From NCBI GenBank assembly GCA_938028835.1, contig CALIMJ010000006.1:4759-68758 (forward strand): DNA of 64,000 nucleotides. The letters are read 5' to 3'. The position numbers and the translations under genes are program-made. Below are positions 2,833-47,361 of this stretch, one piece after another; positions within the stretch are counted from its first letter, which is position 1; every line of letters begins with the position of its first letter. The stretch is from an uncultured bacterium. GTDB lineage: Bacteria > Sysuimicrobiota > Sysuimicrobiia > Sysuimicrobiales > Sysuimicrobiaceae. Under the pieces are notes generated by a model. The model did no database searches and was not told the DNA's origin. It was given only the letters and a program-made list of their open reading frames with translations.

Positions 2833-3666
2833 CTACTGCCCTCCCGCGGCCGCGGCCACTTCCGCCCGCTCGCCCAGTAGGACGTGGTCCAGGGCGAACA
2901 GGGCGGCGCCGATGGCCCCGCAGAAGTGGGACTCCTCACTCACGTTCACGGGCACCCCGCTCATCTCCCCGATCAGGTGCACCATGGCCACGTTCCGGGC
3001 CACGCCGCCCGTGAAGGTGAGCTCGGGCTCGATCCCGACCCGCCGGAGCAGCGACAGGCTGCGCGAGGCGATGGAGGCGTGCACCCCCATCAGGATGTCC
3101 TCCACCTTGCGGCCCCTCGCCAGCCAGCCCAGGATCTCCGACTCCGCGAATACCGTGCAGGTGGTGGTAATGGTCACAGGGTTGCGGGCCGTCAAAGCCA
3201 GGGGCCCCAGCTCGCCCAGGGGGATCTCCAGGGCCGCGGAGGCCGCCCCCAGGAACCGGCCGGTGCCCGCAGAGCACTTGTCGTTCATGCAGAAGTCCAG
3301 CACCTCGCCGCCGGGCCCCACCCGGATGGCCTTGGTGTCCTGGCCGCCGATGTCCAGGACCGTGCGGGTGTTGGGGAACAGGAAGCAGGCTCCTCGCGCG
3401 TGGCAGCTGATCTCCGTCACCTGGGTGTCCCCGAACTCCACCTTGAAGCGGCCGTACCCGGTGCCCACGGTGTACTGCACGTCCTCGGCGGACAGCCCCG
3501 CTTCCTGGAGCGCGGCCTCGAAGGCGGCCCGCGCCGCCTCGTTCAACCGCGCGCCCGTGTCCACCAGGGCCCGGCCCAGGATCTCCCGCTCCGGGCTCAG
3601 GATCACCGCCTTGGTCTGGGTGGACCCCACGTCCACCCCCGCCACCACCTTCTTGGCACCCCACAT
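2833..3666 (-). CDS. BadF/BadG/BcrA/BcrD-type ATPase, paralog 2
   Basis: [37 protein letters not shown] and [12 protein letters not shown] motifs. ATG at 3666 lies after a GGAGGTGA RBS. 277 aa. The N-terminal part of the 591-aa ORF was discarded. Confidence 0.85.
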
Positions 3667-3674
3667 GTTCACGC

Positions 3675-4973
3675 TCACCTCCCCACTGCAGCCTTGTGCG
3701 CCGCCAGCGCTTCGAAGAAGGCGTCCACGCGGTTCTTGATCTGCGCGTCCGACCACAGCCTCGGGTCCACCAGGTCCGACTGGATGAACAGCCCCGGCAC
3801 GTTCCGCTGCACCCGCATCCACTCCCGCACGTCCGGCAGTCCCGTGCTGGTAGTCCGGCAGCTCTTCACCCCGTGGAAGCAGATGCCGTCCACCTTCCAG
3901 TCCCGCACCACCCGGTCCAGCCACTCCTGCTGGTAGAACATGGCTCCGGTCCAGCCCCAGTAGGTGGCCCGGACCATCTGCTCCGCGAAGCTCTCCAGGG
4001 GCCGGCCCAGGTCGTAGCCGAAGCCCGGCACGAAGCCCCCGCCCGCGAACACCATGTAGGTGCTGTGCACGAACACCCCGCCCCAGGAGCTGAACAGCTC
4101 CACGAACCGGCGGAAGTGGCTGTAGCAGGCGGTCCCCACCAGCACCAGCCGGAACCGCTCGTCCGGCACCGCCGCCATCCCCAGCCGCACCCGCTCCCGC
4201 ATCTCCTCCAGGGCCAGCTCGAAGTACCGGGTGCCCTCCGGGGTCCCCCGGTACAGGTTGGCGATGCCCTGGTAGGTGACCCCCTCCAGGGGCGCGTTGA
4301 AGGGAGCGGGGATGTGCCGGTTCGTGTCGCACACCGCGTGGTACAGCTCCGCCATGCGGTTGGCCTCCCGCAGGTGCTCCCGGAACCGGTCGATGTCGAA
4401 GGACTTCCCGGTGATCCGCTCGCACACCTCGATGAGCTCCCGCAGCTGGCCCAGGACGTAGCGACAGTCGTTCTCGAAGGTCTCCCGGAAGGCCTCCGTG
4501 CCCTCCCGCAACGACTCCCGGCCCCGCCAGCCGGGCAGGTCGAAGGTGAACACCGGACAGCCGTAGTAGTGCTCCCAGAACTCTGCCCACTTGAGGTACG
4601 TGTTGCACACGTTGTTGGTGACCACCAGGGCGGGCCGGGGGACCCGTCCGTAGGGGTGCTCCCCCTCCTTCAGCTGCACCCCCACGTCCGCCTTCACGTA
4701 CCCGCAGATGTCCGGGGAGAAGCCGTAGTCCTCCGCCAGCTGGATGTACGCCTGCGACTGGCCCCGGATGGCGGTCTGCAGGGAGGTGATCTCCGGCGCG
4801 TTGATGACGAAGTCAAAGGTCAGCAGCAGCTCGGAAAGCGGCGCCATCACGAACACGTAGGCGGTGGGGTGTCCGGTCTGGGCCGCCTCCGTCATCCGCT
4901 GCCACCACAGCTCCATCAGCCGCCGGCCCTCGCGCCGGCTGACCCCCAGGATCTCCTGCGCCGATGTACTCAC
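3675..4973 (-). CDS. 2-hydroxyacyl-CoA dehydratase / benzoyl-CoA reductase BcrB(BadE)-like subunit
   Basis: HgdB/BcrB family-like sequence (..CGYVKADVG.., ..[15 protein letters not shown].., ..[11 protein letters not shown]..). Start set at the GTG (VSTSAQEIL) about 10 nt after the upstream stop. An alternative ATG (MELWW) lies at about 4916. Confidence 0.7.
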
Positions 4974-7723: not shown

Positions 7724-8901
7724 CGCGCCACCTCCTGTCGGGCACTCTCCCGCACCACCTGCCGTCCCACCACCAGGGCCTGGATCTCCGAGGTCCCCTC
7801 GTAGATGCGCAGGGCCCTTACGTCCCGGTACAGGCGCTCGGCCGTGCTTCCCGCCACCACACCCCACGCCCCGTGCAGCTGGACCGCCTCGTCCACCACC
7901 CGCTGGGCGGCTTCCGTGGCGTACAGCTTGGCCATGGAGCTGTCCTGGGGCCCCCGGCCCGCGTCGCAGTCGTGGGCCCACGCGGCCCGGTACACCAGGA
8001 GCTCGCTGGCCTCCACCTCCGTGGCCATCCACGCCAGCTTCCACCGCGCCAGCTGGAAGTCCGACAGCGCCTGTCCGAAGGCCACCCGCTGCCGGCTGTG
8101 CCGCACCGCCTCGTCCAGGGCCCTGCGGGCAAAGCCCACCGCCGCGGCACCCACCGTGGCGCGGAAGGTGTCCAGGGTGCGCATGGCCACCGCATACCCC
8201 TCGCCCTCCTCCCCCAGGCGGTGCGTCGCCGGGACCCGGCAGCCGTCCAGGGTCAGGGTGCCGAGCGGGTGCGGGCTCAGGGTGCGGATGCGGCTGGACA
8301 CCCGCAACCCCTGCGCGTGGGCGTCCACCACGAAGGCCGTGAGGTCTTCCTTGCCAGGGCCGGTGCGCGCGAACACCACGTACTGGTGCGCCAGCCCGGC
8401 GTTGGAGATCCACGTCTTGGTGCCCACGAGCTCGTACCCATCCTGTACCCGGCGAGCCGCCGTCTGGATGGCGGCCACATCCGAACCCGCCTGCGGCTCC
8501 GACAGGGCAAAGGCCGCGATGCGCTCGCCCCGGGCCACCGCGGGCAGGTAGCGGGCCCGGAGCTCCTCACTCCCAAACAGGGCGATGGGCAAGCTGCCGA
8601 GCCCCTGCATGGCGAACGCGAAGTCCGCAAGCCCGCTGTGGTACGCCAGGATCTCCCGGGCCAGGCACAGGCTGCGCACGTCCACCCGGGCGTGCACGCC
8701 TCCGTACGCGGCGGGCACACAGTACCGCAGCCAGCCAGCCTCTCCGAGTCTGCGCACCAGCTCCCGTGCCACCCCGTCGGGGTCGAGCTCCTCCCGCTCC
8801 GCCAGGCCCCCGAGCTCCCGGGCGGCCCACGCGCGCAGGTCCTCCGCCAGCGCCCGGTGGTGGGCGTCGAAGAAGGGCCAGCGCAGGGGGTACAGGTCCA
8901 C
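7720..8901 (-). CDS. Acyl-CoA dehydrogenase
   Basis: 393 aa with ..[10 protein letters not shown].., ..QLHGAWGVV.. and ..IYEGTSEIQ.. ACAD motifs. Confidence 0.9.
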
Positions 8902-8903
8902 TC

Positions 8904-9743
8904 CTAGTCCCCCCGGAACTCAGGCGGGCGGCGCTGGACGAAGGCTTCGTAACCGCGGGCGAAATCCTGTGTCAGCATGCACAGCGCCTGCGCCTGGGCC
9001 TCCGACTCCACCGCCTCGTCCAGGGACATGTCCCACTCCTTGTGGAGCATCCGCTTGGTGATGGCGTGGGCGAAGGTGGGCCCCCTGGCCAGCTGGCGGG
9101 CCAGCTCCTGGGCCTCCTGCAGCAGCGTCTCCGGAGGGCACAGGCGGTTGAAGAACCCCCACCGCTCCGCCTCCTCGCCCGACATCTCGCGGCCCGTGTA
9201 CAGCAGCTCCGCGGCCCGGCCCAGCCCGACGATCCGGGGCAGCAGGGCGCAGGCGCCCATGTCGGAGCCCGCAAGCCCCACCCGGTTGAACAGGAAGGCC
9301 AAGCGGCTGCGGGCGGTGCCCAGCCGGAGGTCGCACGCCGCGGCCACCACCGCACCCGCACCCACGCACACCCCGTCCACCGCCGCCACCAGGGGCTGTG
9401 GGCAGTGCCGCATGGCCACCACCAGCTCCCCCGTCATCCGTGTGAAGGCCAGCTTGCGCCGGACATCCATGTCCAGGAGGGGCCGGATGATCTCGTGCAC
9501 GTCCCCGCCGGAGCAGAAGTTGCCGCCAGCACCGGTGATCACCACCACCTTCACGTCCTCCACCCGCCGCAGCAACTCGAAGGTGTCCCGCAGCTCCGCG
9601 TAGCTCTCGAAGGTGAAGGGGTTCTTGCGCTCCGGACGGTTGAAGGTGAGGGTGGCCACCCCGTCCTGGAGGTACCACAGGAAGTGTCGAAGCCGGATGT
9701 CCGACCCGCGCATGATCCCTCCCTGCGCCACGGCCTCAACCAC
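8904..9743 (-). CDS. Enoyl-CoA hydratase/isomerase family protein
   Basis: [17 protein letters not shown] and [27 protein letters not shown] motifs. 279 aa. Confidence 0.85.
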
Positions 9744-11286
9744 CCCCCGCCCGCCCCCGCTCCCGCTCCGCCAGCACCCGCCGCAGGATCTTGCCGACCG
9801 CGGACTTGGGCAACTCGTCCACGAACTCCACCTCGCGCACCCGCTTGTAGGGGGCCACCCGCTCCCCCACGAACCGCAGCAGCTCCTCCAGGCTCACCGG
9901 CGCCCTGCGGACCACGAACGCCTTGGGTACCTCCCCCAGTTCGGGGTCGGGCCGGGGGACCACGCAGGCTTCACGCACCGCGGGGTGTTGACGCAGGACC
10001 TCCTCCAGCTCCGCGGGCGCGATGGAGTAGCCCTTGTACTTGATCATTTCCTTGCGGCGGTCCACCCACCACAGGTAGCCGTCCCCGTCGAACCGCACCA
10101 GGTCTCCCGTGCGGAACCAGCCGTCCGCGAACGCCTCCTGGTTGGCCTGCGGGTTGTTCCAGTAGCCCACGGTGACCATCGGCCCCCGCACCAGCAGCTC
10201 CCCCACTTCTCCCGCCTCCAGGTCCCGACCGGTCTCCGGATCCACCACCCGCTGGTCCAGTCCCGGCACCGGAGGTCCCACCGAACCCCGTTTGATCTTC
10301 ATGGGCGGGACCGCGATGTTCATCGGTCCCGCCGTCTCCGTCATGCCGATGTGCTCGGTGGCGGGGCAGCCGAAAACTTCCTCCGCCCGGCGGGCCAGCT
10401 CCGCGTCCAGGGGCAGGGCCGCGGTGTTCAGGAACCGCAGCCCGCGGTAGGCAAACCCCGTCCGCTCCGCGGCCTCCACCAGCTCCCACAGGGCTGGAGG
10501 CACGGCGAACAGCTCCCGAACCCGGTGCGTCTCCATCAGCCGCAACACCTCCACGGCGTCAAACCGTGGGACCAGCACCTGGCAGGCGCCCAGGCACACC
10601 CCGGCATTCAGCAGGGCCAGCAGGCCCGCGCAGTGGCACAGGGGCAGGAAGTGTACGTAGCGGGAGCGTTCCGTGATGAAGCCCACCGCCCGCCCGGCCA
10701 TCAGGTCCGCCACCACGTTGCGGTGGGTGAGGGCCGCGCCCTTGGGAAGGCCCGTGGTGCCGCTGGAGTACAGGATGCAGGCCAGGTCGTGCTGTGGGTC
10801 CAGGACCACGGGTTCGGGCTGCTGCCAGGGCTCTGCGGCTTCCTCCAGCTCGTCCAGGCTCAGCACGTAGCGCAGGGAAGAAGCCACGCCGGCCTCCCGC
10901 AGCTGGCCGACCCACTCCTTCGAGGCCAGGACCATCTGGGCTCCGGTGTCCAGCAGGCACCGCTGCACCTCCGGGAGCTTGCTGAGGGGGCTCAGAGGTA
11001 CCACAACCCCGCCCGCCCGGAGGACCCCGTAAAAGCCCAGGGGGACCTGCGGGCACGTGGGCGACAGGAACACCACGCGGTCGCCCTTCTCCAGCCCCAG
11101 CTCCTGCAGGGCCCGGGCCACCCTTCCGCTGGTGTCCCACAGCTGCCCGTAGGTGGTCACCCGCTCGGTAGGCCCCCACACCAGGACAGGCCGGTTCGGC
11201 TCCGACCGTGCCCACCGCTCCAGCAGCTGGCAGGAGGTCAGCTTGGGGACCGCCAGAGGATGCGCCGTGGGGTGACGGAACACCAA
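9736..11286 (-). CDS. AMP-dependent acyl/aryl-CoA synthetase (candidate 4-hydroxybenzoate/benzoate-CoA ligase)
   Basis: [15 protein letters not shown]-binding motif, GMTE, and the [15 protein letters not shown] hinge. 516 aa. Confidence 0.85.
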
Positions 11287-33679: not shown

Positions 33680-34407
33680 CGCGTCCTCCCCGCAGCCAGA
33701 AGTGCCCGGTCCCGCAGCCACCGGTACATGCTCTCGAACAGCCGCCGGCCGTCCTGCCCGCCCAACACCGCCTCCGAGCACCGCTCCGGGTGGGGCATCA
33801 GGCCCAGGACGTTGCCCTCCCGGTTCGCGAGGCCCGCGATGTGGTGCAGTGAGCCGTTCGGGTTGGCCTCCGGGGTGGTGCGGCCGTCCCGGTCCACGTA
33901 CCGGAACACCACCTGGCCGCGCTGCTCCAGCTCCTCCAGCACCTCCGGCGGCGCGTGGTACCGGCCGTCCCCGTGGGCGATGGGCATGCGCACCACCTCC
34001 CCCGGCGCGTACAGGCTGGTGAACGGCGTGTCGGCCCGCTCCACCCTCAGGGTGGTCCACTCGCACCGGAACGTGGCCCCCCGGTTCCGCACCAGCGCGC
34101 CGGGCAGCAGCCCGGCCTCCAGCAGGACCTGGAACCCGTTGCAGATCCCCACCACCAGCCCGCCGGCGCCCGCAAACCGCCGGACCGCCCGCACCACCGG
34201 GCTGGTGGCGGCCACCGCCCCGGGCCGCAGGTAGTCCCCGTAGGAGAACCCGCCTGGCAGCACCACCGCGTCGAAACCTGAGAGGTCCTCCTCCTCATGC
34301 CACACGAACTCCGCGGGGTAGCCCAGCACGTCCCGCAGCACGTGCAGGCAGTCCCGGTCACAGTTGGACCCGGGGAACACCACCACGGCGAAACGCGGGT
34401 CCCGCAT
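33676..34407 (-). CDS. purQ: Phosphoribosylformylglycinamidine synthase subunit I (glutaminase)
   Basis: [16 protein letters not shown] and the HPER triad. Internal ATG ([11 protein letters not shown]) overlaps the purS stop by 1 nt. Confidence 0.9.
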
Positions 34408-41008: not shown

Positions 41009-41102
41009 GCCTGACCAGGTCTGTGTCCGTCAGCCGGGCGGGGCCGGTGGCAGCCACGGTGCTGAAGTGACGTGGTGCCTGCCGGGAGGCCGGCCGCGCG
41101 CG

Positions 41103-41657
41103 TCATGGCGGTGCCGTCCACGACACCGGAACTTCCCTCAGGCGGCCTTCAGCGTCCCAGTACCGGAGGTAGCCGTTCTCTCGGCCGAACCGGTACAGCT
41201 CCCACGTCAGCTCCACGTCCTGACGGCAGTACTCCACCACACGGTCCACCCAACCACGCCGCCACCACCGCAGCGCCTCCCACCCGTCCGCGGACTTCCC
41301 CCGGCCGAGCGTGGCGAGCGCCAGGTGGTGCAGCCCCACCCGGCGGCGCAGGCTCCTGCGCACCTCCTCCAGGATGTCCACGGTGGGTAGTTCGTGGACG
41401 GAGGGCCCTCCGTACCGCTCCAGCACCAGGTAGTCGAAGGACCGTACCGCGAACCCGACCACCAGCTGCGCCTCCCGCAGCTCCGCCACCAGGCGTTCCG
41501 CCTCGCTTTCCAAGTACGCCCGGTACGTGGCCGACAGCGCGTGGAAGACCACTGCCACCGCAAGCCGCGGCGCCCTCCACACACCTGCGCCGTCCTCCCG
41601 CTCCCAATCGCGGGTTTCCACGTCCAACACGACCAGCCCACCGCTCACGACCGACAC
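41103..41657 (-). CDS. Predicted 3'-5' exonuclease, RNase H-like fold (DEDDy / YprB-like)
   Basis: Exo I LVVLDVET, Exo II FAVRSFDYLVL, Exo III YCRQDVELTWELY. 184 aa. Confidence 0.55.
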   Translation of the reverse strand: MSVVSGGLVVLDVETRDWEREDGAGVWRAPRLAVAVVFHALSATYRAYLESEAERLVAELREAQLVVGFAVRSFDYLVLERYGGPSVHELPTVDILEEVRRSLRRRVGLHHLALATLGRGKSADGWEALRWWRRGWVDRVVEYCRQDVELTWELYRFGRENGYLRYWDAEGRLREVPVSWTAPP

Positions 41658-42110
41658 TGCCCCCTCGACCTATTCCCCACGTTGCCAGACACGCCACAGA
41701 CGAACCCCGAACCGTAGACTGGTGCGTTGAGCAGCCCCGGTCCGAGTCGTGCACCAGGCCGGGTGCAGGCTTCCGCCGCCACAGGGCCATCTCCAGGGCG
41801 TCTGTCACCAGCTCCGCCCGGGCGTCATTCCGCATCTCGCAGCCCACCACAGCCCGGCTCCAGCTGATCCAGCACCACCCCCAGATACAGCCAGCCCTCC
41901 CCCGTGGGAATCTGCTTCACGTCCGCCACCCACAGCCCATCCGGCCCTGCGGCCCGGAACTGCCGTCTCACCGCCTCCGGGCCAGTGCACCGATTCCTCC
42001 CGAGGCTCTTGCCTCTCCGTCTCAGGGTATCCACGAAACCCTGGGAAGACCACCTGCGTGCCCCCCGGACGTCTCCAGCACCGGCCCCGGTACGCTACAA
42101 TGCCCGTGAG

Positions 42111-43289
42111 ATGCCCTTCACCGTGAAAGACTTCCAGAGCCTGCTCCGGCTGCTGGACCGGCAGCCTCAGTGGAAGGACGCCCTCCGGGCAAGCCTGCTG
42201 GGCGAGGAGTTCCTCGAGCTCCCCAGTCTGGTCCGCAGCCTCCTCCAGGCCCAGCGGGCTGCGCAGCGGGAGCTCCGCGCCCTCGCGGACTCCCACCGCC
42301 AGACTCAGCAGGAGCTCCGGGCGCTGGCCGAGGCCCAGACGCGTCTTGCGGAAGCCCAGGCCGGCACCGACCAGCGCGTCGCCAGACTCGAGGAGGCCGT
42401 CGCGCGCCTCACGGAAGCCCAACAGCGCAGCGACGAGCGGGGAGCCCGCCTCGAGCAGGCTCTCGCACGTCTCGCGGAAGCCCAGGCCGGCACCGACCAG
42501 CGCGTCGCCAGACTCGAGGAGGCCGTCGCACGCCTCACAGAAGCCCAACAGCGCAGCGACGAGCGGGGAGCCCGCCTCGAGCAGGCTCTCGCACGTCTCG
42601 CGGAAGCCCAGGCCGGCACCGACCAGCGCGTCGCCAGACTCGAGGAGGCCGTCGCGCGCCTCACAGAAGCCCAACAGCGCAGCGACGAGCGGGGAGCCCG
42701 CCTCGAGCAGGCCCTCGCACGTCTCGGGGAAGCCCAGGCCGGCACCGACCAGCGCGTCGCCAGACTCGAGGAGGCCGTCGCACGCCTCACGGAAGCCCAA
42801 CAGCGCAGCGACGAGCGGGGAGCCCGCCTCGAGCAGGCTCTCGCACGTCTCGCGGAAGCCCAGGCCCGGCTGGAGGAACGCATGGGGGAACTCGCCACCC
42901 AGGTGGGCAGACTGTCCGACGCCCTGGGCTTCAGCCTCGAAGAGCTCGCCCGGGAGCTGGCGCCCGCATACTTCGAAAAACACCACGGCATCCGCGTACC
43001 CTCGTTCCAGCGGCGCTTTTTCACCGTGGACGCAGAGGACGTCGAGGTGGACTTCTACGGGGAAGGGACACGCGACGGCGAGGCAGTGGTGGTCGTGGGG
43101 GAGGTCCGCAGCCGCATTTACGGTCGAGACATAGAGGCTCTGCTCCGGAAGGTCCAGCTACTTTCCCCTCTGCTTCCGGCCCCTCCCCTGCCCGTCCTCT
43201 TCGGCTTTGTCATCCACCCCTCCGCGGCCCAGCTGGCAGCTCAAAAAGGCGTGCTCGTCTTCACCCCCGTCGGCCCGCACCGCTTCTAA
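42111..43289 (+). CDS. Coiled-coil protein with four 42-aa tandem repeats and a conserved C-terminal globular domain (function unknown)
   Basis: MPFTVKDFQSLLRLL..., then four copies of AEAQAGTDQRVARLEEAVARLTEAQQRSDERGARLEQALARL, then ...FFTVDAEDVEVDFYGEGTRDGEAVVVVGEVRSRIYGRDIEAL. The ATG lies 10 nt downstream of a TACAAT -10-like box, giving a near-leaderless transcript. Confidence 0.6.
   Translation: MPFTVKDFQSLLRLLDRQPQWKDALRASLLGEEFLELPSLVRSLLQAQRAAQRELRALADSHRQTQQELRALAEAQTRLAEAQAGTDQRVARLEEAVARLTEAQQRSDERGARLEQALARLAEAQAGTDQRVARLEEAVARLTEAQQRSDERGARLEQALARLAEAQAGTDQRVARLEEAVARLTEAQQRSDERGARLEQALARLGEAQAGTDQRVARLEEAVARLTEAQQRSDERGARLEQALARLAEAQARLEERMGELATQVGRLSDALGFSLEELARELAPAYFEKHHGIRVPSFQRRFFTVDAEDVEVDFYGEGTRDGEAVVVVGEVRSRIYGRDIEALLRKVQLLSPLLPAPPLPVLFGFVIHPSAAQLAAQKGVLVFTPVGPHRF
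42351..42854. repeat. 4 x 126-bp near-identical tandem direct repeats (in-frame, inside the coiled-coil gene), plus a partial 5th copy
   Basis: Repeat unit gaagcccaggccggcaccgaccagcgcgtcgccagactcgaggaggccgtcgc... recurs at 42351, 42477, 42603 and 42729 with 1-3 substitutions per copy. Confidence 0.9.
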
Positions 43290-44090
43290 AGACCGCCCCG
43301 TCGGGCCACCCTCCCCGCCTCGCGTCTGTCCCAGCAGCCGGCGCAGGATCAGGGCGTTACGCACCGCGTGGCCGGCCACGTCGTTGTTGAAGAACACGTA
43401 GCCTTCCCGGCCCGCGGCCAGCTGCCCGGATACCCAGCGGGCATCCGCCCGCAGGCTGCTGAGCGGGTAGCAGCCGGAGTACGCGTCCCCGGGCCCGTGG
43501 CGCCGCAGGTACCACCAGCCCGCCGTGTCTGGCACCCGTACCACCGGCCGGCCCACCCGCCGCGGCCGCATGCCGGGAGGGAGGACCTGGAAGGGCCAGT
43601 CCGCGCAGACCACCGCCGCCCCGTACTCTCCCAGCAGCTCGTACACGGGTTCCGCAAACCATGAAGCGTCCCGGAACTCGAAGGCGTGCAGCACCGTCCT
43701 CGGCAACGCCGAGAGGAAAGCGCGCAGGCGCTGCAGGTCGGCCCGGAAGCGCGGCGGGAGCTGCCAGAGCACGCACCGCAGCCGGTCCCCGAGCGGCCGG
43801 CAGGCGTCCATCAGCACCCGCAGGGGCTCCCGTGGGTCGCGCAGCCGTCGCACGTGGGTCAGGTAGCGGCTCCCTTTGACCACGAAGGCGAAGTCCCGCG
43901 GGGCGCGGCGGGCCCAGCCCTCGAAGGTCTTCGACGCGGGCAGGCGGTAGAAGGTCACGTTCAGCTCCACCGCGTCGAACACTTCCGCGTACCGCTCGAA
44001 CCACCGGGAAGACGGCAGGTCCTCCGGGTACAGCACACCCACCCAGTGGGGGTAGGTGTAGCCGGAGGTCCCCACCCACGCCCGCGCCAC
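43158..44090 (-). CDS. DUF72 (YecE/UPF0759) family protein
   Basis: GTSGYTYPHWVGVLYP...VELNVTFYRLP...FEFRDASW...YVFFNNDVAGHAVRNA. GTG 5 nt after GGAGG. There is no in-frame stop until 43158, so the about 70-aa low-complexity tail may be read-through. Confidence 0.7.
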   Translation of the reverse strand: MARAWVGTSGYTYPHWVGVLYPEDLPSSRWFERYAEVFDAVELNVTFYRLPASKTFEGWARRAPRDFAFVVKGSRYLTHVRRLRDPREPLRVLMDACRPLGDRLRCVLWQLPPRFRADLQRLRAFLSALPRTVLHAFEFRDASWFAEPVYELLGEYGAAVVCADWPFQVLPPGMRPRRVGRPVVRVPDTAGWWYLRRHGPGDAYSGCYPLSSLRADARWVSGQLAAGREGYVFFNNDVAGHAVRNALILRRLLGQTRGGEGGPTGRSLEAVRADGGEDEHAFLSCQLGRGGVDDKAEEDGQGRGRKQRGK

Positions 44091-44104
44091 GGCAGCCTCC
44101 GGGG

Positions 44105-45328
44105 TCAGTCCAGCCGCACGCGCGCGAACCGCCGCCGGCCCACCCGCACTACCAGCCCCGGGCGCACCTCGACCCGTTCCTCGGCGTCGGTGACCCTCCT
44201 GCCGTCCACGCTGACGCCGCCCTGGGCCACCAGCCGCCTCGCCTCGCTGTTGGAGACGACCAGCCGCACCAGCCGCAGCAGGCGCACGATGCCCACGCGG
44301 CCGTCCGGGTCTAGGTCTTCTGCCCTCACGCGCACCTCCGGAATTTCCGAGGGCAGCTCCTCCCGCGCGAAGACCCGGTCGAACTCCTCCTCCGCGGCCC
44401 GGGCGGCTTCTGGCCCGTGCCAGACCGCCACGATCTCCCGGGCCAGGCGCCGTTTGACGTCCCGAGGGTGCAGCCGGCCAGCCCGCAGCCCCTCGTCGAT
44501 CGCCCGCACCTCCTCCATGGGAACTTCCGTACACAGCTCGAAGTAGGTGACCATGAGGGGGTCGGGCAGGGACATCACCTTCCCGTACATCTCCTGGGGC
44601 GGCTCGTTGATCCCAATGTAGTTGCCCAGCGACTTGCTCATCTTCTCCACGCCGTCCAGGCCGGGCAACAGGGGAGTCAGCAGCACCACCTGCGGGGGCT
44701 GGCCGAACTCCCGTTGCAGGTCGCGGCCCATCAGGTTGTTGAACTTCTGATCGGTCCCGCCCAACTCCACGTCCGCTTCCAGGGCCACCGAGTCGTAGGC
44801 CTGGCACAGGGGGTACAGCAGCTCGTGCAGGCCGATGGGGCTGCCTTCCTTCCAGCGCGCGGTGAAGTCGTCCCGCTCCAGGATGCGGGCCACGGTGGTC
44901 TTGCTGCACAGCCGCACCACGTCCGCAAAGCTCAGCGACCCCAGCCACTGGCTGTTGAAGGTCACCCGCGTGCGCTCGGGGTCCAGGATTCGGCTGTACT
45001 GCTCCCGGTAGGTGGCCGCGTTGCGCTCCACCTCCTCCCGGGTCAGCATGGGGCGGGTCTGCTTCTTGCCCGTGGGGTCGCCGATGAGCGCGGTGAAGTC
45101 CCCGATCACCAGGATGGCCTCGTGACCCAGGTCCTGGAACTGCCGGAGCTTGCGCAGCACCACCGCGAAGCCGATGTGGATGTCGGGCGCGGTGGGGTCC
45201 AGACCCAGCTTCACGCGGAGCGGCCGGCCCTCCTGTAGCTTGGCCAGCAGCTCCTCCTCCGTGATGATCTCCGCGGCGCCGCGCCGCAGCAGCTCCAGCT
45301 GTCGTTCGGGTGGAAGGAACGGGGTCAT
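44105..45328 (-). CDS. tyrS: Tyrosine--tRNA ligase
   Basis: HIGF (HIGH-type) motif, KMSKS, and C-terminal S4 domain. 407 aa. Confidence 0.9.
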
Positions 45329-45350
45329 CCTCTACGCACCGCCCGCACCG

Positions 45351-46454
45351 TCAGGGTATCGAGAACAGCAGCTCCAACGCGGACCGTTGGACCTCCACGC
45401 CCAGGCCGGGACCCGGGGGCAGGGTGCCCTGGCCGGCCTCGCTGCGCGGGAGCCCACCCGCCACGTGCTCCAGGTTCCAGTCGTTCATGAAGGAGGCCGC
45501 CAGCAGGGAGCGCGGCGGCGTGCTGGCCGCCACGTGGGCGGTGGCCGCGGTCGCGAGATCCCCGCCCCAGGTGTCCTCCACCACCACTTGCAGCCCCAGC
45601 GCCACCGCCAGGTCCCGCAGGACGCGCCCGGCCGCCAGCCCGCCCACGCGGCTGATTTTCAGGTTGACCGCCGCGGCTTGCCCCTCCTGCGCCGCCCGCA
45701 CCAGACTGCGCACGTCCGTCACCACCTCGTCGTACACCATGGGGAGGGTGGTGCGCGCCCGCACGGTCAGGCACTCCTCCAGGCTCGCACAGGGCTGCTC
45801 CAGCAGCACCTGCGGGTAGCGTTCCAGCAGGCGGGCAGCCACCACCGCCTGCTGGACGGTGTAGCCTCCGTTGGCGTCGGCCAGGATCCAGCAGGACGAC
45901 CCCACCGCCTCGGCCACCGCGGCCACGCGGTCTGAGTCCGCAAACGGATCGGTGCCCAGCTTCAGCTGGAACACCCCCACGCCCTGCGCGCGGTGGCGTG
46001 CCGCGAAGTCCGCCATGGCCTCCGCGGGTCCGAGGGGTACCGCCACGTACAGGGGGAAGCGCTCCCGGTACGCGCCACCCAGCAGCGCCGCCACCGGCAG
46101 CCCCGCCGATTTGCCCAGCAGGTCCCAGCACGCCACGTCCACCACGCTCTTGGCGTAGGGGTGGCCTGCCAGGGCGGCGTCCATGCGGGCGTGGACATCT
46201 GCCAGGTTCCCTGGGTCCGCGCCCACCACCGCGGGCGCCAGCTCCCGCAAGGCGGCCCGCGCGCCGCCCGCGAAGGCGGGCAGGTACGTGCTGCCCAGCG
46301 GACACACCTCGCCCCAGCCGTCCACACCCTCGTCCGCCACCAACCTCACCACGGTACTGGGCAGGCGTTCCACCGCGCGGCCGCCCGACATGACGTAGCG
46401 ACCGTGGGCGTAGGTGAGCTCGTACCCGTACACCTCCACCGCTCGGACCCGCAC
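45351..46454 (-). CDS. Enolase-superfamily protein (mandelate racemase / muconate lactonizing enzyme / dipeptide epimerase-like)
   Basis: N-terminal capping domain (VADEGVDGWGE). Barrel with ..KLGTDP.., ..ILADANGGYT.., ..EQPC.., ..DEVV... The N-terminal 35 codons of the ORF are rejected. Confidence 0.7.
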   Translation of the reverse strand: MRVRAVEVYGYELTYAHGRYVMSGGRAVERLPSTVVRLVADEGVDGWGEVCPLGSTYLPAFAGGARAALRELAPAVVGADPGNLADVHARMDAALAGHPYAKSVVDVACWDLLGKSAGLPVAALLGGAYRERFPLYVAVPLGPAEAMADFAARHRAQGVGVFQLKLGTDPFADSDRVAAVAEAVGSSCWILADANGGYTVQQAVVAARLLERYPQVLLEQPCASLEECLTVRARTTLPMVYDEVVTDVRSLVRAAQEGQAAAVNLKISRVGGLAAGRVLRDLAVALGLQVVVEDTWGGDLATAATAHVAASTPPRSLLAASFMNDWNLEHVAGGLPRSEAGQGTLPPGPGLGVEVQRSALELLFSIP

Positions 46455-46491
46455 CGCCACCTCCTGACGCGAAATTTCGAGGCCGACCCGG

Positions 46492-47361
46492 CTACCCGGG
46501 GTGTGCCACCACGGGATTCCGCAGGACGCCCACCCCCTCCACCTCCGCCTCCACCACATCCCCGGGGGCCAGGGGGCCCACGCCCGCGGGAGTCCCGGTG
46601 GCGATCACGTCCCCCGGCTCCAGGGACATGTAGCGGCTCACGTACTCGATGATGCGCGGCACGGACAGGATCATGTCGGCGGTGGAGGCGTCCTGCCGCA
46701 CCTGCCCGTTCACCCGCAACCTCACCCGCACGCGGTCGGGGTCCGGCAGGGAGCGCGGGGTGACCAGCACGGGACCCAGGGGACAGAAGGTGTCGAAGCT
46801 CTTGGCCCGGTCAAAGGGCCTGCCGCGCTGGATGTCCTCCCGCTGCAGGTCCCGGGCGGTGACGTCGTTCAGCACCGTGTAGCCGCCCACCAGGTCCAGG
46901 GCGTGCTCCGCGGGCACCCGCACGCCCCGGCGGGCGATCACCACCGCCAGCTCCACCTCGTGGTGCACCTCCCGGCTTTCCGGCGGGATCACGATGGCCT
47001 CCTCCGGCCCCACGATGGAGCTCGGCGCCTTGAAGAAGATGGGCGGGTCCTCCGTGGCCTCGTTGCCCAGCTCCCGCGCGTGCTCCACGTAGTTGCGGCC
47101 CAGCGCGACGATCTTCGGGGGGTGCGGCAGCGGGGCGAGGAAGGTCAGCTCCGAGAGGGGTCGTACCTGTGACCCCAGATCCAGGCCCTCGGGGACCTGG
47201 TGCGCTTCCAGCCGCTCCACCAGCTCCTCCATGCGGTCCACCACGTCCCGGCGACCGAGAAGCTGCGGGATGCTGCGAACCCCGTCCAGCAGCACCGCGT
47301 GGTGGGCCAGCACGATGGCCACCGCCTCCTGGTCCTTGTACCGAACCCTCGCAAGCCGCAT
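46492..47361 (-). CDS. Fumarylacetoacetate hydrolase (FAH) family protein
   Basis: FAH fold markers (..GRNYVEHARE.., ..ELAVVIAR.., ..GYTVLNDVTARD.., ..GTPAGVG..). Confidence 0.8.
   Translation of the reverse strand: MRLARVRYKDQEAVAIVLAHHAVLLDGVRSIPQLLGRRDVVDRMEELVERLEAHQVPEGLDLGSQVRPLSELTFLAPLPHPPKIVALGRNYVEHARELGNEATEDPPIFFKAPSSIVGPEEAIVIPPESREVHHEVELAVVIARRGVRVPAEHALDLVGGYTVLNDVTARDLQREDIQRGRPFDRAKSFDTFCPLGPVLVTPRSLPDPDRVRVRLRVNGQVRQDASTADMILSVPRIIEYVSRYMSLEPGDVIATGTPAGVGPLAPGDVVEAEVEGVGVLRNPVVAHPG

Follow-up and report, generated by a model that had tools for sequence, protein, structure and literature searches.

The gene described here lies in a 64,000-nucleotide stretch of DNA from an uncultured bacterium of the Sysuimicrobiaceae (GenBank assembly GCA_938028835.1, contig CALIMJ010000006.1, positions 4,759 to 68,758 of the forward strand; hereafter, the window), and its product is probably a stand-alone accessory protein of the class that combines a coiled-coil stalk with a PD-(D/E)XK head. 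As modelled, this 392-amino acid (aa) protein is built of three parts: a helical N-domain of 44 residues, a stalk whose ~228 residues keep a single heptad register, and a C-terminal PD-(D/E)XK head. An initial annotation of the window had pointed out in-frame repeats, a near-leaderless promoter, and a conserved C-terminal domain in this gene; that observation is confirmed, and the interpretation attached to it is partly supported. The coding sequence runs on the forward strand from the ATG at 42111 to 43289 (392 aa plus stop), the start codon being fixed by the homologues, which begin MPFTVKDFQ... A longer open reading frame (ORF) of 461 aa, opened by a GTG at 41904, is not supported, as 14 homologues share the Met start at ATG 42111. 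An exact look-up of the 392-aa sequence returned no record, and no other copy (paralogue) of the gene is present in the 64-kb window.

The stalk (42243..42926, forward strand; aa 45-272) keeps one unbroken heptad register. Between residues 46 and 268, all Leu, Ile, Val, Met, and Phe residues fall at positions a or d (59% of the a/d positions, 0% elsewhere), with Q/V/L/G at a and L/T/S at d, and the database matches of this region consist only of coiled-coil noise. The stalk contains the four near-identical in-frame repeats first noted in the initial annotation, which are indeed four tandem 126-bp units of 42 aa, or six heptads each (42348..42851, forward strand), with pairwise identities of 96.8-98.4%; the count of four rests on one assembly, and a short-read contig of the same organism breaks within the array. 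Tandem Repeats Finder describes the same array as 4.2 copies of a 126-bp period (42342-42866, 97% matches, no indels, score 1001), within which an older 63-bp half-period is still recognizable at 74%. Only four sites vary among the units, three of them synonymous third positions and one causing an Ala to Gly change. At unit sites 57 and 66, all four allele combinations occur, and this failure of the four-gamete test points to recombination or conversion between units, or to recurrent mutation, which is compatible with the concerted evolution that had been suggested for the array.

Stalk length varies in whole heptads in this family, and copy number differs between close strains. The close homologues measure 187, 194, 201, 208, 215, 222, 229, or 236 aa, and the part lying N-terminal to the head is an exact multiple of seven residues in 73 of 113. 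Tandem units (at least two copies, at least 90% aa identity) were found in 85 of the 275 family proteins sampled (31%), with a repeat period that is a multiple of seven in 84 of the 85 (7, 14, 21, 28, 35, 42, or 56 residues); the array of the window is the longest in this sample. The recent expansion and strain-level copy-number variation predicted in the initial annotation can be seen directly in two pairs of relatives. The gene of Ca. Tepidifontimicrobium thermophilum (L012) encodes 357 aa and that of L042 469 aa, while the two loci are 96.8% identical over 3.96 kb covering the 3' part of the gene and its downstream flank. The second pair, L051 (319 aa) and L052 (291 aa), comes from one metagenome and has a 14-aa unit in eight and six copies, respectively. 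Recent expansion and variable copy number are a property of the family as a whole, beyond the window gene alone. They show in nature how a protein spacer evolves through tandem duplications that keep the phase, the copy number differing from strain to strain and even inside a single metagenome. In L011, the neighbour convergent with the related gene (3444-3956, reverse strand; 170 aa) is itself a repetitive coiled coil with its own heptad repeats (RRFDDVN/RRIDDV...).

The head corresponds to the C-terminal 120 aa (42927..43286, forward strand). Its AlphaFold2 (AF2) model has a predicted local distance difference test score (pLDDT) of 89 and a predicted template modelling score (pTM) of 0.81, with helices at 17-33 and 79-95 and strands at 41-47, 50-62, 65-73, and 100-105. 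Foldseek comparison of the model with the PDB retrieved MspJI (5e-5), EndoMS/NucS (1.5e-4), and AF1548 (4.5e-4), followed by Pyrococcus abyssi NucS and then by Card1, Can2, and XisH, all PD-(D/E)XK nucleases; the matches in a viral structure library are also PD-(D/E)XK nucleases or restriction endonucleases. On the strength of this model, the head is firmly predicted to adopt a PD-(D/E)XK fold of the Hjc/NucS/Mrr-like restriction-endonuclease type, as had been guessed from a D...E.(K/R) motif. Sequence comparison is silent at this level: the last ~137 aa have no sequence match in Pfam, NCBIfam, PHROG, PADLOC, or the PDB, and PDB searches with the single sequence and with a profile returned nothing meaningful and no characterised homologue.

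The putative active site combines E277 on helix alpha1 (42939-42941), E312 and D314 on strand beta2 together with E331 and R333 on strand beta3 (43044..43109), and H369 (43215-43217), all on the forward strand. E277, E312, D314, and E331 are invariant or near-invariant in 120 close homologues that are 52-71% identical (D314 in 120/120, E331 in 119/120), and the Ser that follows E331-x-R333 is invariant, as is the H369-Pro-Ser-Ala stretch. In the wider family, the equivalent of E277 is retained in 142 of 145 representatives, that of E312 in 140 of 150, and the beta3 Glu in 148 of 153. The acidic residues of the motif seen in the initial annotation are, thus, conserved, while the clade of the window gene has ExR rather than ExK, and catalysis is not assured.

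The N-terminal domain (42111..42242, forward strand; aa 1-44, MPFTVKDFQSLLRLLDRQPQWKDALRASLLGEEFLELPSLVRSL) is predicted to form two short helices capping the stalk. In the AF2 model of a short homologue (P0002), obtained at moderate confidence, helices at residues 5-17 and 19-29 precede the stalk helix. This domain (MPFTVKDFQ...LELP) is present in ~10% of the close clade; it has no match in Pfam, NCBIfam, PHROG, or PADLOC, and a search with its 48-aa sequence recovered only two truncated gene calls of 65-66 aa. A -10-like hexamer, TACAAT (42096..42101, forward strand, read from the sequence), precedes the gene, and no Shine-Dalgarno-like sequence is found upstream of ATG 42111. Both points had been made in the initial annotation, which placed the hexamer 10 nt from the ATG; the distance is 9 nt. 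In the same window, GGAGG- or GAGG-like sites precede the tyrS, DUF72, MR_MLE, FAA-hydrolase, and exonuclease genes.

The near-leaderless arrangement recurs well beyond the window. In 14 of 14 distinct N-domain genes, the last letter of a TAnnnT box stands exactly 9 nt upstream of the ATG, and no Shine-Dalgarno sequence is present (TACAAT in 10, TAAAAT in three, and TATAGT in one). In homologues devoid of the N-domain, the box is absent (8/8), and Shine-Dalgarno-like sequences stand in its place. Judging from these sequences, promoter box and N-domain move together. Their co-occurrence is the best available evidence for leaderless expression of the N-domain genes, and the window gene itself is apparently transcribed from the -10 box 9 nt before its ATG into a leaderless mRNA.

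The N-domain is also associated with a second type of head. In three loci (L044, L045, and L046, 3001-4095), the same N-domain and the same type of 42-aa unit are joined to a different head, named here head B as opposed to the head A of the window protein, with further head-B genes, likewise built on this N-domain and stalk, in L051 (7818-8777) and L052 (2355-3230). Head B is characterised by the sequence features ...EADVVVAG...YLLAEVSSTV... and, more generally, LERRYRER…ADVVVxG…YLLxEVS. It matches neither Pfam nor NCBIfam models, and its homology to head A is distant (hhalign 82%, E 1e-5). The locus and its relatives would illustrate domain shuffling mediated by a repetitive stalk. On the 542-kb JGI contig Ga0209478_1000020, two 6.6-kb stretches carrying the head-B genes of L045 and L046 (55899-62546 and 152406-159053) are 100% identical and lie 97 kb apart, the result of an extensive segmental duplication or else of an assembly error.

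The family to which these heads belong is large, and no function has been assigned to it. Conservation of the C-terminal domain, claimed initially, is borne out by 157 close homologues of the head; a profile built from them retrieved 837 representative clusters at 50% identity, 404 of which score below 1e-10, and the domain is C-terminal in all 837. The carriers are thermophilic bacteria and archaea, mostly of hot-spring lineages, and belong to Sysuimicrobiota (CSP1-3, which NCBI frequently labels Armatimonadota), Acidobacteriota, Bacillota, and Planctomycetota among bacteria, and to Bathyarchaeia, Thermoproteales, Korarchaeum, and Geoarchaeota among archaea. Several family copies per genome are found. 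The closest relatives of the window gene are those of L011 (294 aa, with a 92% identical head), L012, and P0122 (266 aa).

The favoured explanation for these features is that of a stand-alone accessory protein whose stalk would form a parallel homo-oligomer, most simply a dimer, which is favoured because Val occupies position a and Leu position d (Harbury rules). In such an oligomer, the nuclease heads would be kept side by side at one end of the stalk, as is required to cut or bind DNA that is duplex or branched, and the N-domains would lie some 35 nm away at the other. The stalk would act as a spacer constrained solely by heptad phase, growing and shrinking by slipped-strand or unequal recombination between near-identical units, and the four 126-bp copies of the window gene would represent one recent expansion of this kind. 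The same repetitive sequence could serve as a recombination substrate that shuffles heads and N-domain/promoter modules between paralogues. Located in a rearranged variable island, the gene would behave as an accessory gene that thermophile genomes exchange horizontally. Nucleic acid is the most likely target of the protein, with a part in genome conflict or maintenance more probable than one in core repair. A role in genome conflict or mobility is inferred from the variable islands, the toxin-antitoxin (TA)-rich regions, the insertions within operons, and the patchy cross-domain distribution. Should the head be an active nuclease, stalk length would constitute an experimentally tractable variable, as the distance from N-domain to head might set the cut site or the target. 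A bolder proposal, to which only tentative credence is given, is that the family forms an unrecognised class of thermophile genome-conflict nucleases, defensive or selfish, in which the fast-changing, heptad-quantised stalk would be a tunable ruler or an escape surface, and its repeats a recombination hotspot swapping promoter/N-domain modules and alternative heads from one paralogue to another and also between bacteria and archaea.

Several observations weigh against this explanation. The related stalk fragment of Tcar0761 was crystallised as a trimer (PMC4786415). A sigma-70 consensus scan found no full -35/-10 promoter at the gene, so that support for the promoter is comparative only. A conflict role finds no echo in a tblastn search of the head against plasmids and phages or in a scan of viral contigs, neither of which revealed any member, nor in PADLOC, where no defence model matches the head and the full protein gives only coiled-coil matches to JetC, LmuB, and ZorA. 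Terminal inverted or direct repeats were sought around the gene at four loci, with nothing convincing, and the HEPN/MNT and TA neighbours of several relatives could reflect the mere abundance of such modules in thermophile genomes. The chemistry of the head raises a further difficulty. The Lys of the PD-(D/E)XK motif is normally essential, and its replacement by Arg usually impairs catalysis. In the clade of the window gene, this motif-III Lys is replaced by Arg (R333; Arg in 116 of 120 close homologues, Lys in three), while among 153 family representatives the position is Lys in 122 (80%) and Arg in 24. The beta2 Asp is itself replaced by Asn in 45% of family representatives (Asp in 82 and Asn in 68 of 150). 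Catalysis by the modelled head is, therefore, plausible rather than assured, Arg standing where the normally essential Lys is expected, and some or all family members may only bind nucleic acid.

These substitutions favour a first alternative, in which the head is a catalytically dead PD-(D/E)XK domain and the protein a structural or scaffolding coiled coil, associated with the nucleoid or the envelope, that only binds DNA or a partner, with neutral variation of the stalk. The presence of several homologues within polysaccharide, pilus, or exosortase gene clusters and the lack of any PADLOC defence model matching the head agree with it. Nevertheless, four near-invariant acidic residues, together with a basic residue, a Ser, and a His, occupy canonical active-site positions across more than 800 clusters, a near-invariance not readily accounted for unless the site binds metal or nucleic acid. 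In addition, Lys and Arg interchange within the clade, and the 392-aa protein has neither a signal peptide nor a membrane segment. This alternative, thus, appears unlikely, although it retains some weight.

The genomic context is that of a rearranged, variable region. At 82% nucleotide identity, synteny with L051 extends from MutS2 through tyrS and DUF72 to position 43326 of the window and resumes at 41013, so that the segment 41013..43326, which contains an exonuclease-like gene, an insertion sequence (IS) remnant, and the coiled-coil gene, represents a variable island (blastn against L051). In L051, the gap is filled by a different segment (7765-10996) holding the head-B member in opposite orientation, an alcohol dehydrogenase, and small ORFs; the site of the island, between DUF72 and a UbiE-type methyltransferase/purD block, is conserved. 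The head-B member of L051 directly follows DUF72 on the same strand, and at that same end of DUF72 the window has its head-A member, oriented the other way. In both L051 (7800-7820) and L052 (2337-2357), the first three letters of the TAAAAT box of the head-B gene are the TAA stop codon of DUF72, and the ATG of that gene lies 9 nt further on. The convergent DUF72 ORF downstream of the window gene (43158-44090, reverse strand) encodes 310 aa, whereas its homologues have 250-268 aa. The final ~55 codons are read-through without conservation and overlap the 3' end of the coiled-coil gene by 132 bp in antisense, an extension that probably results from the rearrangement at 43326.

Homology to L011 and L012 is limited to 42073/42092-43297, that is to promoter and ORF, with unrelated flanks. 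The relatives are generally solo genes found among PIN/MazE, PemK, and HEPN/MNT modules, as well as among pilin, glycosyltransferase, and exosortase genes, and also next to IS605 tnpA/tnpB. Distant members sit within operons, in the orders lysA-dapF-dapA-[gene]-dapB (L047, 4001-4969) and fumarase alpha-[gene]-fumarase beta (L050, 4001-4978).

Such a distribution also suits a selfish cassette, namely a free-standing gene for a homing-type or Rpn-like endonuclease that would insert by means of its own nuclease. The abrupt ends of homology with the closest relatives (within ~40 bp of the ORF on its upstream side and 8 bp on its downstream side), the intercalation between dapA and dapB or between fumarase subunits, the promoter carried by the gene itself, the multiple copies per genome, and the occurrence of two different members at the same DUF72-adjacent site in opposite orientations could all be accounted for in this way. 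However, neither terminal repeats nor target-site duplications were found, no pair of empty and filled sites was recovered for a single cassette, and phages, plasmids, and viral contigs yielded no copies, while the variable island contains other cargo and an IS remnant able to explain the rearrangement. Self-mobilisation is, consequently, judged improbable, and horizontal exchange of a stand-alone accessory gene is preferred.

It might further be argued that the four-copy array is an assembly artefact, arising from mis-joined or mis-counted repeats. A short-read contig of the same organism (L001, from Logan ERR9287632) is 100% identical to the window over 42837-47000 and starts at 42837, inside the last repeat unit. 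The 392-aa product has no record elsewhere; because of this break, public protein sets include the gene solely as a fragment of 135 aa (P0001). However, the four units carry distinct combinations of single-nucleotide polymorphisms, the reading frame and heptad phase are intact, and comparable or longer arrays exist in relatives (L042, 469 aa; L019, 376 aa; P0271), all of which makes an artefact very improbable. Short-read contigs end inside such arrays, and these genes constitute assembly breakpoints in short-read metagenomes.

The upstream neighbour is a DEDD-type exonuclease-like gene (41103-41657, reverse strand; RNase_H_2, PF13482, 34.5 bits) with DxE, FD, and YxxxD motifs and a PHROG match to 'DNA polymerase exonuclease subunit'. 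Between it and the coiled-coil gene is wedged a frameshifted internal fragment of an IS3-family transposase (41658..42034, reverse strand, 377 bp), matched by NCBIfam transpos_IS3 at ~1e-8 in two fragments covering profile positions 196-286 of 369, and by Pfam rve. This remnant, the sole copy in the window, stands outside the system of the protein and marks the locus as rearranged. The divergent pairing with a DEDDy exonuclease put forward in the initial annotation, and with it a two-gene nuclease module, is effectively refuted: the neighbour does lie only ~450 bp away on the opposite strand, but the IS3 fragment intervenes, and the exonuclease is absent from the 40 other homologous loci searched by tblastn (41 loci and 354 kb with L001, the same-organism contig whose first letter lies within the gene and which does not reach its upstream side) and from the annotated contexts of 13 homologues, ranging from close to distant. 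Elsewhere in the window, ARAGORN called a 101-nt tRNA-Ala(tgc) at 34113-34213 (reverse strand), inside long ORFs and with no Rfam match at E<=1, which is probably a false positive.

Among known systems, the class itself is not new, as an architecture combining a coiled-coil stalk with a PD-(D/E)XK head was already described in 2007 and 2016 (PMC1913061, PMC4786415). The initial description of the gene as uncharacterised, thus, holds for function, which no one has assigned, and not for architecture. Knizewski et al. (2007) assigned DUF1626 (PF07788, COG5493) to the PD-(D/E)XK superfamily (PMC1913061), and Anantharaman et al. (2013) reported DUF1626 restriction endonucleases in archaeal operons with MNT and HEPN genes. 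The window protein shows the architecture described for DUF1626/PDDEXK_10, with its N-terminal coiled coil; the proteins of that family occur in thermophilic archaea and Chloroflexi-type bacteria and are habitually mis-annotated as tropomyosin or SMC-like (PMC1913061). The nearest superfamily neighbours of DUF1626 are NucS (DUF91), Mrr, and Hjc/Hje, in agreement with the Foldseek result for the window head. Nevertheless, the PF07788 model has no match at E<=10 to the window head, to six archaeal and bacterial relatives, or to head B, and motif III of the window protein is ExR (ExK in the wider family) instead of the Thr variant with a migrated Lys. Head B of L044 and L051, where EVS is followed by an Arg-rich helix, is nearer to the published DUF1626 description than the window head is, with Thr/Ser at the Lys position.

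The second family to consider is DUF3782 (PF12644), the Pfam entry that groups the stalk coiled coils from 'a family of prokaryotic endonucleases' studied by Hartmann et al. (2016), in which bacterial members have plain heptads and the stalk of Tcar0761 has 14 near-perfect repeats (PMC4786415). The position of the stalk before a PD-(D/E)XK head, the plain heptads, and the highly repetitive stalks are shared with the window protein. Relatives score 16.8, 21.5, and 20.2 bits with this model over the stalk-head junction (cut-off 24.4), DUF3782 is absent among the best 25 of the 29 matches of the window protein, and the latter has neither nonad nor beta-layer motifs. A third family, DUF8196 (PF26618), is related through precomputed matches that cover the heads of relatives; the match is strong in P0194, whereas the close clade, with the head-only fragments P0060 and P0093, gives weak or faint ones.

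The closest solved folds to the head are those of EndoMS/NucS, archaeal Hjc/Hje, and the catalytic domains of MspJI and Mrr, which are dimeric or tetrameric PD-(D/E)XK enzymes whose motif III is of the GE(C/V)K(S) type also seen in the wider family. Their sequence similarity to the window head is undetectable, however, and the window clade has Arg for Lys. The N-termini also differ, as enzymes such as EndoMS/NucS and MspJI have PCNA- or single-stranded DNA-binding or SRA-like reader domains where the window protein has a coiled coil.

Other resemblances are due to the stalk alone. The 'chordopoxvirus fusion protein' label mentioned in the initial annotation is spurious, as had been suspected. 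One relative bears this name in NCBI, and Vac_Fusion (PF02346) scores 22.4 bits in the window protein, below its cut-off of 24, and 42.5 bits in P0136, with no domain-level stretch in either case. The likeness to the A27 fusion protein is one of heptad-repeat composition, with unrelated origin and function, and a viral fusion-protein reading was rejected as a coiled-coil artefact; a literature search on this label or on DUF8196 found no papers. An SMC/Rad50-type ATPase was likewise rejected, as coiled-coil segments alone align (30-40 bits versus cut-offs of 567-729) and the termini are the N-domain and the PD-(D/E)XK head, not ABC-ATPase heads. The present description, thus, corrects a recurrent series of mis-annotations as chordopoxvirus fusion protein, SMC, SbcC, TolA-binding, or prefoldin.

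Heptad-quantised length variation, strain copy-number change, head swapping, and a leaderless N-domain module are not mentioned in the 2016 description (PMC4786415). Beside DUF1626 and DUF3782, the gene in itself is unsurprising and constitutes a new, extreme member of a known architecture, to which it adds three features worth recording: a strain-variable stalk quantised in heptads, an apparently leaderless N-domain module, and the swapping of heads.

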